Source: Anaerolineae bacterium (lineage in GTDB: Bacteria > Chloroflexota > Anaerolineae > B4-G1 > DUEL01). Taken from it: DNA of 64,000 bases. The stretch covers positions 42,623 through 106,622 of the forward strand of contig JANXCY010000002.1 of NCBI GenBank assembly GCA_025060135.1. Reading direction: 5' to 3'. This document shows positions 8,041 through 30,509 of the stretch, piece after piece. Every line of letters starts with the position of its first letter. Positions within the stretch are counted from its first letter, which is position 1. Made by a program: the position numbers and the translations under genes. The notes under the pieces were generated by a model that was given only the letters and a program-made list of their open reading frames with translations, was not told where the DNA came from and did no database searches.

Positions 8041-8134
8041 AGCGCAGGTCGTCCGGCCTGAGAGATGCAGGCTCCAGCCTGCGTTGGACCACCTGTGGCA
8101 TTTTGAGGTACAGGCTCACAGCCTGCGCTACGCC
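8041..8134 (+). repeat. downstream copy of the 20-bp element (agcgcaggtcgtccggcctg) plus an inverted copy of the tagcgcaggc motif (cagcctgcgctacgcc)
   Basis: Direct comparison with 7012-7031. Together these flank the ZnuA-like gene. Confidence 0.55.
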
Positions 8135-8210
8135 ACCTTTGGCGTTTTGAGTCCGTTGCAAAAAGCCCGCTTCACCGCCGAGACGCAGAGCACGCAGTTG
8201 ATCCTGGTCT

Positions 8211-25583: not shown

Positions 25584-26815
25584 CCCAGAACCGGGAACGG
25601 CTGGCCTGGATCATTCTGCTGGTCTCCTTTACCCTCTGTGTGGGTCTGGCGGTGGGCGTGCCGCTGGGTGTCCGGCAGTTCCTGCGGATGGCCACCCGCG
25701 CACAGCCCATCCTGCTGCAGCCCTTGCATGGAACACCGGGCCTGCAGCGCGGTGGACACGGCGAATTCATCGCCCTTCAGAGTCCCACTTGGGACGTCCC
25801 GGCGGGCAGTTTCCTGGTTACCGACAGCGCGGCCCAGGCCCTCCTGACCTTCCACGCGCCCGCCTCTGGGTCCGAAGTCGTGGCGACGGTCCAGGTCTAC
25901 GGCGACACCCGGCTGCGCTTCCAATCCGCCCGTTCCCCGCGATTTGGCCTCAGCTCGCTCCCCCACCACGTCGGCCTGCGAGTGGAATCCGGGCGGGTGC
26001 GGATCACTGTCTCCCCGGCGGGTGGACGGAGAACGGTGGCCAAACTCCATACCCCCCATCTCACTGCGGAACTGACGGCGGGCAGTTATGAGGCGCGCGT
26101 TTACGGTCCCTTCACCGAATTCATCGTCCGCGAGGGGGATGCAAAGGTAGTCTCCGCTGGAGGGTCCGTCGTCTCCCTCAACGACAACCAGCGCACCATC
26201 GCCCAGGCCGGCCCGGCACCGCTGGAAGCGCTCCCTACCGCACGCAACCTGCTGATCAACGGCGACTTTCGCCAGCCGCTGGAAGTGGGCTGGGAGACCT
26301 ATACCGTAGAAGTCAGTACCATTCAGCCTCCCGCTTATCCGATCACCGTCCCGGCCACTGTTCAGACCACCACCTTTGCGGGACGTCCGGCGGCCCGTTT
26401 CTTCCGGGAAGGCATCGGCCACGCCGAAGTGGGCATCCGGCAGACGCTGAACCAGAACGTGCAAGACCTCGCCTCTCTGATCCTCCACCTCAACGTGATG
26501 GTGCAGAGCCAGAGCCTGCCCGGCTGCGGCTCACGCGGCTCCGAATGTCCCATCATCGTCCGGATCGACTATCAGGACGTTTTTGGGGGAGACCAGACCT
26601 GGTACCATGGCTTCTTCTCTTCCCCCCGGGCAGAAACGGACCCTTTGTACTGGTGGAGTGATCAGATTCCTTTTCAAACCTGGGTCTCTTATGACTCCGA
26701 AAACCTCATGCAGAGCGGCGCACCTCCGGCTGTCATCAAGTCGGTTACCATCTACGCCTCCGGCCACTCCTTTGACGCGCTGGTTACTGAGGTAGAGTTG
26801 CTGGCGCAGGAGTAA
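25580..26815 (+). CDS. hypothetical membrane-anchored protein
   Basis: N-terminal TM helix, no recognisable domain. Overlaps acyP by 4 nt and abuts the decarboxylase gene. Confidence 0.5.
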
Positions 26816-27837
26816 TGGAAGCCATCCGCGTCTATCCGGATTCCTCCATGTCCGAACTCCGGGCCACCGCTGAGGCTGGCGCCAATATCGCGCTGACCAA
26901 GTACTGGGGCAACGCCGACCCTGACCTGCGCATCCCGGCCAACGATTCGGTCTCCATCACCCTGGACTGCACCCGCACGGTTACCACCGTTGCCTTTCAG
27001 CCCGACCGGCCAGAGGATGAGATCACGGTGGACGGCCGGCTACTGACCGGCCCGGCCCGGGAGCGGGTATCCCACCATTTGGACCTTCTCCGGGAACGGG
27101 CAGGCGTCCCCTGGCGCGCGCGGGTCGTCTCCCGGAACAACTTTCCGGCCGGCGCGGGGATTGCGGCTTCCGCTTCCGGCTTCGCCGCGCTCACCCTGGC
27201 CGGCGCGGCCGCCCTGGGCCTGGATCTGTCCCCCCGCGATCTGAGCGTTCTCGCCCGACGGGGCTCCGGCTCCGCTGCCCGCTCCATCTTCGGGGGATTC
27301 GTCCTCCTGCACACTGGTGCCCGGGACGAGGACGCCTTCGCCGAACCCCTCTACGGTCCCGACTGGTGGGACGTCCGGGACCTGATCGTCGTCGTCTCCC
27401 GGGCCGAGAAGGCGGTCCCTTCCAGCGAGGGGCACCTTTTGGCGCCGACCAGTGCCCTCCACCGGGCCCGGGTGGCCCGGGTGGCCGAACTGAACCGGCA
27501 GTTACTGGATGCCCTGGCCCGCCGGGATTTTGCCGCGCTGGGCCATGCCGCCGAGGAGGACGCACTCCTGATGCACGCTGTGATGATGACTTCCCGTCCG
27601 TCCCTTATCTACTGGCTCCCGGAGACGGTGGCCCTCATCCGCCGGGTACAGGCCCTCCGGGCAGAGGGCATCCCCGCCTACTTCACCATAGACGCCGGGC
27701 CCAACGTTCACGTCCTGACCCTCCCGGCCTACGCCGACCACCTCCAGGCCGACCTGCGGGCCCTGCCCGGCGTCCAGGCCGTTATCTCCTGCCGTCCCGG
27801 CCCGGGAGCCTCCGTCATCCCGCATCCTGGAGAGTAG
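26815..27837 (+). CDS. mvaD: diphosphomevalonate decarboxylase (GHMP kinase family)
   Basis: IALTKYWGN, NFPAGAGIAASASGFAAL GHMP/MVD motifs. Confidence 0.85.
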   Translation: MEAIRVYPDSSMSELRATAEAGANIALTKYWGNADPDLRIPANDSVSITLDCTRTVTTVAFQPDRPEDEITVDGRLLTGPARERVSHHLDLLRERAGVPWRARVVSRNNFPAGAGIAASASGFAALTLAGAAALGLDLSPRDLSVLARRGSGSAARSIFGGFVLLHTGARDEDAFAEPLYGPDWWDVRDLIVVVSRAEKAVPSSEGHLLAPTSALHRARVARVAELNRQLLDALARRDFAALGHAAEEDALLMHAVMMTSRPSLIYWLPETVALIRRVQALRAEGIPAYFTIDAGPNVHVLTLPAYADHLQADLRALPGVQAVISCRPGPGASVIPHPGE

Positions 27838-27840
27838 CCG

Positions 27841-28947
27841 ATGCGTCCCGCGACCTGCGCCCTGCAACCTGCGGCTTGCGACCTGCGCTCTGCGGCCTGC
27901 GACTTGCGACGCGCGTCCTGCTTCCTGCTCCTTGTATCCTGTTTCCTGCTTCCCCTTTCCGGCTGTATCCCTTCCGACTCCACTCCGGCAACAGGCCAGG
28001 CGACCTACATCCCGCCCACTTGGTTGCCGCTGGCAACGGCCACCCCATCCCCAACGGCGACACCGGCCCCGGCGCTGACACCGCTTCCCACTGCCACCCC
28101 GATGCCAACGGCCACCCCGATCCCAACGCCCACTTTCACCCCCCGGCCAACGGCGACGCCGACGCCGACGCCAACGCCCACTCCCATCTGCGCGGGTCTC
28201 TCCGGTCGGATCGAGGTCGGCTCCTATCCCAGCCGGGTCCTGGGCCGGGCTGCAACGTACCGGATTTATCTCCCTCCGGGCTACGACTCCTCGCCCGTGT
28301 CCTACCCGGTGCTCTATCTCCTCCACGGTTATCCATACAACGAGACCCACTGGGACCGGTTAGGGGTGGATGAAGCCGCCGAAGCGGGCATCTGCTCGGG
28401 GGCTTACCCGCCCTTCATCATCGTTATGCCCAACTGCGACCCGGCCCCGGATGGGATTTTCGTCCGCACCAGCGGCGGAGACCACTCAGTAGAAGGGTTG
28501 ATCGTGAACGAACTTATCCCCCACATCGACCAGACCTACCGGACGTGGGGCAGCCGGGAGGGACGGGCGATTGGGGGCATCTCCCGGGGCGGTGTCTGGT
28601 CGCTGGAGATCGCCTTCCGCCGTCCGGACCTCTTTGCCACGGTGGGTGCACACAGCCCAGCCCTCTCGGTCAACTATCCGTTGCCCGTCTACGATCCCTT
28701 TAACCTACTGACGCAACCGGCGGTGGCCTCCCTGCGCATCTGGCTGGATGCCGGGGATACGGACTGGGCCTGGGTGGGCACCGACCGGATGCATCGGGCA
28801 TTGGTGGAAAAGGGGATTCCCCATGAATACGCCGTGGGTGAAGGCGGCCACACCGATGATTACTGGTCGCGGATGATCCCGGCGTATCTGGCCTTCTACA
28901 CGGCCGCCTGGGTGGGCGAGTTGCCTACTCCCACACCTGGGCCGTGA
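27841..28947 (+). CDS. secreted lipoprotein esterase (putative esterase / enterochelin-esterase-like alpha/beta hydrolase) with PT-rich linker
   Basis: Lipobox LSGC, TPTPTPTP linker, LYLLHGY...GGISRGGVWSL esterase family motifs. Probable true start TTG at 27904 (M-RRASCFLLLVSCFLLPLSGC). Confidence 0.75.
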   Translation: MRPATCALQPAACDLRSAACDLRRASCFLLLVSCFLLPLSGCIPSDSTPATGQATYIPPTWLPLATATPSPTATPAPALTPLPTATPMPTATPIPTPTFTPRPTATPTPTPTPTPICAGLSGRIEVGSYPSRVLGRAATYRIYLPPGYDSSPVSYPVLYLLHGYPYNETHWDRLGVDEAAEAGICSGAYPPFIIVMPNCDPAPDGIFVRTSGGDHSVEGLIVNELIPHIDQTYRTWGSREGRAIGGISRGGVWSLEIAFRRPDLFATVGAHSPALSVNYPLPVYDPFNLLTQPAVASLRIWLDAGDTDWAWVGTDRMHRALVEKGIPHEYAVGEGGHTDDYWSRMIPAYLAFYTAAWVGELPTPTPGP

Positions 28948-30509
28948 TCCGAAAACACTATATACCATTCTCTGAACGGAGCAATGACACCCAGATGACC
29001 ACTCTACCTGTATCCCAATCTGCTCTTCCTGGCTATCGCCGGTTCTTCTTCCGGGGCCTGGTCCTCCACCCGATCTGGCGGATCATTATCTATCTGATCG
29101 TGATGGTGGTCGTGGAACTGGTCGCAGGCTTCACAATCGGGATTCTCTATGGCCTGGTGCTTTTCCTTACAGGAGCCAGTGCGCAGGAGGTCCTGGATGC
29201 CCTGACGGTCGGAATGGCTTCCAGCCCGCTACTGTTGATGGTGGGCATCTCCCGGCTGGTCATCGCGCTGGGGCTGGCCCTGCTGATGAGTCGTTTCCTG
29301 GATCGGGAGCCCATAGAGACCATGGGGCTGGAGCCGACTCGCGGCGGGAAGGATACGGCGGTCGGCCTGGCGTTGGGAGCGGGGACGATGGTGCTGATCG
29401 GAGCCGTCCTGCTGGCCCTGAACCCGCAGCCCTCCTGGCCGGGCCGGGGGGATGGGTGGAAGTTTCTGCTGGACGCGGTGGCCCTCCTTCCGGCCGCAGC
29501 GGCTGAGGAGATCGCCTTCCGGGGATACCTTCAGCGCGCCCTCACCACCTGGCGCGGCCCGATAGTCGGGGTCCTGGTTCCCTCCGTCCTTTTCGCCCTG
29601 TTTCACGCGCTGAACCCGAACGTCTCTCCCCTGGCGCTGGTCAACATCGCGCTGGCGGGAGCGGTCTTCGCAGTGGCGGCGGAGCGGACCGGCACCCTCT
29701 GGCTACCCATCGCCTACCACTACGCCTGGAACCTCACCCAGGGCCCGGTCCTGGGGCTTCCGGTGAGCGGGATGGCCTGGAATGGCCTGCTGGCGCTGCC
29801 AGTGGGCGGCCCTTCCTGGCTCACCGGAGGTGCCTTCGGGCCAGAGGGAGGACTGCTCTCCACTGCGGTTCTGGCCCTTAGTCTGCTTCCACTCTGGGCC
29901 CTGACCCGCTGCCCGGCCAGCCTATCCGGGGTGGCCCGCCGTCAGCGCGCGCAGGCGGAACGGGAGGGCGCTCTCCCCTTCCAGCACCACACCCTCACTG
30001 TCTCGGCCCCATTTTTTGACGACTTTGTCTGCTCCCTCCGTCATCGGGCCCGACAGGGAGAGGTCGTCCTGCTCCTGCGCCGACCGGACGGCCAGGTCCT
30101 TCTGCACAGCAAGTCCTTTTATCCGGCGGGGGTGTTCCGCCTACCCAGCGGAGGGGTGCTCCCTGGCGAATCGGTACTGGACGCGGCCCGGCGGGAAGCA
30201 CAGGAGGAAACCGGGCTGGACCTGCGGGATCCCCGTCCGCTGGGCCTGCTCAGCGTTACCTTCCAGCGAGGCTGGAATCGCCGCTACTTCCACTCTTGGC
30301 TGGTCCTGGCCGATGTGGAAGGAGATCCCCGGCCCGGTGATTCCGGGGAACAGATCAGCGGCTTCCGCTGGGTGCCACCGGAGGCGCTGGCGGAAGTGGC
30401 GGCCCAGTTGCGGGCCCTACCTTCCAGATGGGCGGACTGGGGCCGCTTCCGTGCCCTGGCCCACGAGGTCGCCCTTCGCTGGATAGGAACGGAAATCGCC
30501 ACGAATTAA
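28944..30509 (+). CDS. fusion protein: CPBP-family intramembrane metalloprotease (CAAX protease/Abi) + C-terminal NUDIX hydrolase
   Basis: CPBP motifs EEIAFRGYLQ, FALFHALNP, HYAWNL in a multi-TM N-half. Nudix box GGVLPGESVLDAARREAQEETGL in the C-terminal 150 aa. Confidence 0.75.
   Translation: MIRKHYIPFSERSNDTQMTTLPVSQSALPGYRRFFFRGLVLHPIWRIIIYLIVMVVVELVAGFTIGILYGLVLFLTGASAQEVLDALTVGMASSPLLLMVGISRLVIALGLALLMSRFLDREPIETMGLEPTRGGKDTAVGLALGAGTMVLIGAVLLALNPQPSWPGRGDGWKFLLDAVALLPAAAAEEIAFRGYLQRALTTWRGPIVGVLVPSVLFALFHALNPNVSPLALVNIALAGAVFAVAAERTGTLWLPIAYHYAWNLTQGPVLGLPVSGMAWNGLLALPVGGPSWLTGGAFGPEGGLLSTAVLALSLLPLWALTRCPASLSGVARRQRAQAEREGALPFQHHTLTVSAPFFDDFVCSLRHRARQGEVVLLLRRPDGQVLLHSKSFYPAGVFRLPSGGVLPGESVLDAARREAQEETGLDLRDPRPLGLLSVTFQRGWNRRYFHSWLVLADVEGDPRPGDSGEQISGFRWVPPEALAEVAAQLRALPSRWADWGRFRALAHEVALRWIGTEIATN

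Follow-up and report, generated by a model that had tools for sequence, protein, structure and literature searches.

A heptanucleotide repeat predicted to encode the lipoprotein signal of a CE1-like esterase in an Anaerolineae bacterium

Short tandem repeats within the 5′ coding region are known from neuO and opa. The neuO gene of Escherichia coli K1, which encodes the O-acetyltransferase of prophage CUS-3, carries a 5′ heptanucleotide repeat (AAGACTC, 3–53 copies) and gives a full-length product only if the number of units is divisible by 3; 65.6% of genomes are OFF (PMC13001214). In the Neisseria opa genes, CTCTT pentamers in the region coding for the leader peptide specify hydrophobic residues, and gain or loss of a unit shifts the reading frame (PMC5354566). 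Tandem heptanucleotides have also been described on a genome-wide scale. The GGGNATC repeats of Xanthomonas and those of Calothrix and Nostoc (“STRR”) are concentrated between co-directional genes, strand-specific, and variable in copy number (PMC4692102), and the TAACTGA heptamers of Beggiatoaceae are found just upstream of start codons (PMC4679880). These cyanobacterial, Xanthomonas, and Beggiatoaceae heptamers lie within approximately 50 nt of stops or upstream of starts, are essentially noncoding, and are under-represented in genes (PMC4692102, PMC4679880).

Here, we describe a heptamer repeat at the 5′ end of an esterase gene, in a window (i.e., the whole stretch of DNA analyzed) of 64,000 nt from an uncultured, environmental Anaerolineae bacterium. 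By analogy, neuO and opa are the closest mechanistic counterparts. As in neuO, the heptamer repeat lies in the 5′ coding region, is read as a 7-aa repeat, and varies widely in copy number (here 8 to approximately 35 units between species). Unlike neuO, in which units are perfect, switching is measurable, and about two-thirds of genomes are OFF, the units here are degenerate, and 9 of 11 orthologs are ON; the neuO repeat forms a retained N-terminal domain, whereas that of the esterase would form part of a predicted cleaved lipoprotein signal. As in opa, the coding repeat falls within the signal peptide of a surface protein and supplies hydrophobic residues, but the unit is a heptamer rather than a pentamer, and opa represents proven high-frequency phase variation in a host-adapted pathogen, whereas switching of the esterase repeat is hypothetical. 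The junction bias of the genome-wide heptamer classes was also measured in this genome; the differences are that one array is translated into a signal peptide, that the unit sequences are unrelated, that the esterase repeat has no G-quadruplex potential, and that the phylum is Chloroflexota. Literature searches returned nothing specific on heptanucleotide repeats in Chloroflexi, in signal peptides, or in lipoproteins, and no account of signal peptides written in heptamers, environmental bacteria included; the 5′ coding-repeat systems that they did return came only from pathogens and their prophages (opa and neuO).

The ORF at 27841–28947 encodes a 368-aa protein with a lipoprotein-type N-terminus, a Thr/Pro-rich linker, and an esterase domain whose best solved relatives are ferulic acid esterases (CE1; 7xrt at 3e-35). 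Table 1 lists the features of the gene and its upstream junction. Part of the linker (28034–28178) consists of degenerate 18-nt repeats and near-perfect 6- and 12-nt repeats (GCCGAC, 5.5 copies). The gene stands in a packed, co-directional row made up of a gene of unknown function, the mevalonate diphosphate decarboxylase (MVD) gene, a gap of 3 nt, the esterase, a 4-nt overlap, and a fusion gene for an Rce1-like (CPBP) protease and a NUDIX domain. Junctions are tight throughout 26815–30509 (ATGA overlap, 3-nt gap, GTGA overlap), and the MVD–esterase pairing is common to the whole family. A scan of 27300–28300 for sigma-70 consensus sites found no promoter- or terminator-like site; on these admittedly weak grounds, a separate esterase transcript was rejected. 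A reading of the tract as an RNA structure was also rejected, as the predicted fold of 27815–27975 was no more stable than those of shuffled sequences (z = −0.76), no inverted partner array occurred within 400 nt of the tract, and Rfam gave no family match there.

Table 1. Features of the MVD–esterase junction and of the esterase gene, with positions in the window
Feature	Position	Strand	Basis
Mevalonate diphosphate decarboxylase (MVD) gene, upstream of the esterase	26815..27837	+	Domain match; synteny kept across the family
Shine–Dalgarno (SD)-like GGAGAG in the last MVD codons, 5 nt before ATG 27841	27830..27835	+	Sequence read; an equivalent GGAG stands before the ATG in all orthologs
Conserved ATG, esterase start, 3 nt after the MVD stop; its TG begins heptamer 1	27841..27843	+	Sequence, orthologs
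Eleven TGCGNCC-type heptamers, coding for the extended n-region	27842..27918	+	TRF, register reading, lag identity
In-frame TTG, start proposed in the initial annotation; without SD, not conserved	27904..27906	+	Sequence, orthologs
Six T-rich heptamers (TGYTTCC-like), coding for the hydrophobic core CFLLLVSCFLLPL	27919..27960	+	Register reading, lag identity
Predicted lipobox L-S-G-C, residues 39–42; Cys codon TGT at 27964–27966 (residue 42)	27955..27966	+	Translation, ortholog alignment
Thr/Pro-rich linker after the lipobox Cys, made of 6-, 12-, and 18-nt repeats	27967..28200	+	Translation, TRF
PF00756 esterase domain, CE1/feruloyl-esterase-like	28201..28947	+	Pfam, E = 1e-24

The tract consists of 17 tandem 7-base units that keep one register throughout (27842–27960). 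Units 1–11 read TGCGTCC, CGCGACC, TGCGCCC, TGCAACC, TGCGGCT, TGCGACC, TGCGCTC, TGCGGCC, TGCGACT, TGCGACG, and CGCGTCC, and units 12–17 read TGCTTCC, TGCTCCT, TGTATCC, TGTTTCC, TGCTTCC, and CCTTTCC. Tandem Repeats Finder (TRF) reported periods of 7, 14, and 28 with a match level of 69–72%. Self-identity of the tract was 0.70 at lag 7, 0.68–0.70 at lags 14, 21, and 28, and approximately 0.25 at other lags, and the lag-7 value was reached by none of 10,000 shuffles. Searching the window for (TGCGNCC)x3 with at most three mismatches gave 10 matches, all within the tract (0.29 expected). The tandem repeat recorded here in the initial annotation is therefore real and far above chance, but its extent and unit have to be revised: the “9–18 bp units” described there are multiples of a 7-nt unit, and the repeat, said to be confined to some 60 nt, runs to 27960 through the hydrophobic core. 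Elsewhere in the window, TRF found a 44-nt tandem duplication (8068–8151, 1.9 copies, 82% match).

The array, flanked by the ATG and the lipobox, belongs to the 5′ coding region, and its unit length is not divisible by 3. With no factor common to 7 and 3, three heptamers make up one 7-aa peptide unit, and the TGCGNCC part shows a 21-nt (7-aa) super-period, (P/S)A(T/A)C(A/D)L(Q/R). The successive encoded repeats are PATCALQ, PAACDLR, SAACDLR, RASCFLL, and LVSCFLL. Since the array extends from the start codon to the lipobox, the whole predicted signal peptide is repeat-encoded, including the part that had been taken for a “textbook” lipoprotein signal. No two adjacent units in the tract of this genome are identical, and long runs of one unit are lacking; relatives do have such runs, namely six TCCTGCA units in a metagenome ortholog (L047) and three to four TGCGACC or TGCGCCC units in G013.

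The genome (2.29 Mb, 63% G+C) is rich in heptamer arrays. Among TRF arrays with at least four copies, period 7 accounts for 42, period 6 for 19, and period 8 for 18, so that arrays are both numerous and in excess over other periods, as in dispersed heptamer classes. The families include ACGGAAT, ACGCAAT, TGCGACC, ACGTGAA, ACAGACC, and a 57-unit CTGTCTC array. The arrays are concentrated beside stops and starts: of 60 arrays, 30 have a predicted stop no more than 25 nt away (4.6 expected at random), 29 have a predicted start at such a distance (5.1 expected), and only 12 are deep in genes (48 expected). TGCGACC arrays occur at approximately 14 loci. At least nine of the loci other than the esterase have a sense-strand array directly upstream of an SD or ATG, and at three loci a G-rich version follows a stop codon. 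These other TGCGACC members are noncoding; the array at the esterase is not, as it lies in the ORF with the frame kept. Its first unit begins 4 nt downstream of the MVD stop (TAG, 27835–27837), and because the MVD–esterase gap is only 3 nt, an array at the usual hot spot falls within coding sequence.

Some further arrays were seen during this survey. A second heptamer-written signal, made of TGTTTCC and TGCTTCC units, stands at the head of a gene of approximately 640 aa (G000:C100:75776-75831, where G000 is this genome; MSHKWIQAPLAFRLPVSRFLFLVSCFLFLASCFFPALASA, then QSK...). An array of approximately 57 units (401 nt, G000:C79:8273-8728) has GGAGACN or GGAGGCA as its unit when read in the sense direction of the gene that follows and is thus full of SD-like GGAG; a CAATACG array comes next, and then the real SD and ATG. 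At G000:C61:20830-20960 (minus strand), a leader stacks AATGACA (approximately eight copies), TGCGACN (four copies), and GTGAAAC-like units, and this triple array precedes the SD and ATG of a lipoprotein gene. In two relatives, TGCGACC-type arrays lie in frame within genes for large membrane proteins (L063 at G001:C255 and L064 at G013:C184), where they encode RPATCDL repeats between hydrophobic segments.

Translated from ATG 27841, the N-terminus has the features of a lipoprotein signal, with an n-region of net charge +2 followed by an uncharged run of 17 aa up to the Cys. The lipobox fits [LVI][ASTVI][GAS]C, and in the ortholog alignment its Cys coincides with that of the lipoboxes LSAC, LTAC, and LAAC. 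The signal is atypical in having a 24-aa n-region and six cysteines. PROSITE rule PS51257 places the lipoprotein Cys within residues 15–35. The Cys of the esterase, at residue 42 from the ATG, lies beyond this range (it would be residue 21 from TTG 27904), and so do those of two sister orthologs without the repeat (residue 39 in G008 and 38 in L050). The 38–39-aa signals of these nonrepeat orthologs indicate that long n-regions are tolerated in this protein family. We infer that the 42-aa signal of the esterase is functional.

The composition of the signal is kept among orthologs. The uncharged run before the Cys is 17–18 aa long in 11 of 15 orthologs tabulated, this genome included, and the n-region spans 2–30 aa, so that the core stays at approximately 17–18 aa and growth is confined to the n-region. 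In each of the 14 orthologs that make up this genus and metagenome set, the n-region carries a net charge of +1 to +3. Extra TGCG(A/C)CC units encode C-D-L-R-P-A-T or C-A-L-R-P-A-P, which are charge-neutral or add one positive charge; here, the encoded D and R cancel, and the net charge thereby stays at +2. The TGC(T/C/A)TCC units next to the lipobox encode C-F-L-L-P-A-S and similar hydrophobic peptides. As each triplet of heptamers brings a Cys, lipobox-like motifs recur in tandem (27919–27966: L-V-S-C at residues 31–34 and L-S-G-C at 39–42; in orthologs, LASC and then LSAC), which makes the true cleavage site ambiguous. We also considered a twin-arginine signal (“LRRASCF” in this genome); it was dropped, as orthologs have a single R and the motif is not conserved.

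Where translation starts was judged from the MVD–esterase junction as read in 16 orthologs, which came from the same genus, from two other genera of the family, and from metagenome contigs. Only six close loci came out of the metagenome scan; of these, L045, L047, and L048 have a complete TGCNNCC junction and L050 is a nonrepeat ortholog. In 15 of the 16, a GGAG-preceded ATG lies 0–8 nt after the MVD stop, the exception being G014, from another genus, with a gap of approximately 65 nt. Four of these 15 lack the TGCNNCC repeat (G011, MAVRFRFSPPLMALVVFSLLVLTAC; G010, MPRSVRPIVSVLLFGGLLLLSAC; G008; and L050), so that the arrangement is shared by repeat and nonrepeat orthologs; within the genus, no ortholog that was read departs from it. 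In the two repeat-bearing orthologs with the shortest signals (G005, MRPASCSLLLASCFLLLLSAC, and G006; both 21 aa), this ATG is the sole possible start. Public gene callers use ATG 27841 as well (368-aa protein P0001).

Among the orthologs that carry the repeat, 9 of 11 have the ATG in frame. The distances from ATG to Cys in these nine are 21, 21, 28, 29, 35, 36, 40, 42 (this genome), and 49 aa; L047 and L048 have an extra Met, and counted from “MRP”, the series becomes 21, 28, 35, 42, and 49 aa. Steps are thus almost always 21 nt, that is, three heptamers. The binomial probability of at least 9 of 11 being in frame at a chance of 1/3 is 0.0014, and counting only the minimum of five distinct in-frame length changes gives (1/3)^5 = 0.004, both figures overstating independence because the orthologs are related. 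As a control, four loci at which a TGCGACC array forms an untranslated leader were compared with their orthologs throughout the genus. Before the MLDLWW... gene, arrays that share a “TGCGCC-ATG” end have 13, 6, 5, 10, 9, and 3 in-phase units, and at the other three loci the number of units varies by one or two; the comparison is qualitative, because occasional 8-nt units blur the in-phase counts. Leader arrays thus change by any number of units, so the three-unit step is not intrinsic to the repeat, and the free variation of the leaders points to selection on a translated frame as the source of the 3n ladder at the esterase.

These observations bear on the start favored in the initial annotation, according to which the TGCGNCC part (27842–27903) would remain untranslated, as a 5′ leader or regulatory element, and TTG 27904 would be the first codon of the protein. 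Such a model draws on a true background, as sense-strand TGCGACC arrays are untranslated leaders at the nine or more other loci mentioned above and at orthologous loci in the genus, and it gives a conventional 21-aa signal whose Cys falls within residues 15–35. At the esterase locus, we nevertheless regard it as unlikely. In nearly all orthologs, the ATG and its SD are kept, at 0–8 nt from the MVD stop, and the ATG is the only possible start in G005, G006, and in the short-signal G010 and G011. The frame is preserved in three-unit steps, unlike in true leader arrays. TTG 27904 has no SD; among the other long orthologs, only G012 has an in-frame TTG at the corresponding position, and the sigma-70 scan of 27300–28300 found no promoter-like site. 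The repetitive N-terminus had been thought improbable as protein; in homologs, however, the upstream ATG recurs and the N-terminus is likewise built of repeats, with a length that varies, and a longer N-terminus in homologs is what the initial annotation itself had named as speaking against its proposal. Both starts may be in use. The annotated ATG start and 368-aa product are correct, and the odd N-terminus is no artefact.

In a maximum-likelihood tree of the catalytic domain, all TGCNNCC-bearing orthologs form one clade (support 89/86), with G008 and L050 as its sister group and G010 and G011, which have ordinary signals, outside these. The nesting of the repeat-bearing clade among orthologs with ordinary signals indicates that the heptamer signal is derived and replaced an ordinary one. 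Close relatives on terminal branches of 0.01–0.03 have signals of 29, 36, 40, and 49 aa, hence length turnover is fast relative to protein divergence. The n-regions of the sister orthologs (L027 of G008, and L050 on metagenome contig FWWL01013983) also contain a small number of heptamer units, but these read CCACAGA or CCACCGA and are unrelated to TGCNNCC. As these units stand at the matching spot of the signal peptide, the site has attracted different repeat families.

The two orthologs that are out of frame, G009 and G007, are sister taxa (support 94/91). In G009, the first ATG opens an upstream ORF of 19 codons, whose TGA stop overlaps a new in-frame ATG (ATGA) that gives MRPATCFLLSAFCFLLLLSAC, a 21-aa signal; judged from this arrangement, it looks like a fixed repair rather than a switch. 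In G007, a tract of approximately 35 units (approximately 245 nt) is out of frame and only TTG codons are in frame. As this array exceeds the length of a short read, its copy number may be an assembly error, and both out-of-frame cases may be such errors.

The best explanation, based on sequence comparison, is that a heptanucleotide simple-sequence repeat replaced the ordinary lipoprotein signal of a CE1-like esterase. We hold with good confidence that the tract is a translated junction repeat under constraints of frame, charge, and hydrophobicity, and that it is probably stable in this genome, its units having diverged with no identical neighbors. The lineage would seed heptamer arrays at gene junctions, and with a gap of 3 nt between MVD and the esterase, the array would have grown inside coding sequence. 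Translation would start at ATG 27841 and be coupled to that of MVD (GGAG upstream; stop, 3 nt, ATG). TGCGACC-type units, read as the polar, net-neutral C-D-L-R-P-A-T, would build the long n-region, and T-rich TGCTTCC units, read as C-F-L-L-P-A-S, the hydrophobic core beside the lipobox. The segment that hosts the array, the signal, would be the one stretch of the protein in which nearly any residues serve, provided that charge and hydrophobicity are right, and it would then be cut off. Copy number would drift by slippage or recombination, with selection for numbers of units divisible by three, which keep the frame, for a core of approximately 17–18 aa, and for a positive n-region. The earlier suggestion that the tract is prone to slippage agrees with the range of copy numbers between species; slippage is presumably the mechanism of copy-number change, and we infer that the variation in length is near-neutral rather than regulatory.

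A more elaborate proposal is that a dedicated process seeds and expands the junction arrays and that the cell exploits them as evolvable modules, with TGCGACC arrays serving at many genes as leaders that tune translation and at the esterase as a length-adjustable, occasionally frame-switching signal. We consider this proposal unlikely. If true, a free-living environmental bacterium would have a system of the contingency or “tuning knob” kind.

A contingency locus in the strict sense, that is, a neuO- or opa-like on/off switch in which slipped-strand gain or loss of one heptamer toggles the esterase within populations, seems improbable. The setting would suit it: a heptamer coding repeat lies at the 5′ end of a surface-protein gene, shares its unit length and the divisible-by-3 rule with neuO (PMC13001214), differs in copy number among close relatives over the full range given above, is out of frame in 2 of 11 orthologs, and forms runs of identical units in L047 and G013. 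In this genome, however, there are no such runs and the match level is approximately 70%, so slippage should be rare. Between species, 82% of the orthologs are ON, against the majority of OFF genomes in neuO that is the expectation for a free-running switch (PMC13001214). The OFF cases are sisters, one of which has gained a rescuing ATG, pointing to a fixed state. The sole other assembly of the species has identical DNA, and the protein is alone in its 90% cluster; the exact-protein look-up returned the same strain only (0 mismatches over 3,107 nt) and is not independent evidence on stability.

Action at the RNA level, with a lineage-specific factor that would bind TGCGACC (UGCGACC) repeats near starts and tune the initiation of a regulon including the esterase, is very improbable: the arrays are strictly sense-strand and a few nucleotides from an SD or ATG at 10 or more loci, and MacGregor made a like proposal for the TAACTGA heptamers that closely precede start codons (PMC4679880), but the downstream genes are functionally unrelated, orthologs vary freely in both the sequence and the number of units, and many other heptamer families occupy like positions in this genome, a pattern more in keeping with a mutational process than with a specific binding site.

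Read as a translated junction repeat, the locus offers a clean natural case of a signal peptide that would be built and resized by a non-triplet simple-sequence repeat, with selection visible as a ladder of 21, 28, 35, 42, and 49 aa. To what is known of such repeats, it adds this length ladder together with a control of noncoding arrays within one genus. It shows how tolerant lipoprotein n-regions are, and how a genome-wide mutational process, the formation of heptamer arrays at gene junctions, may spill over into coding sequence.
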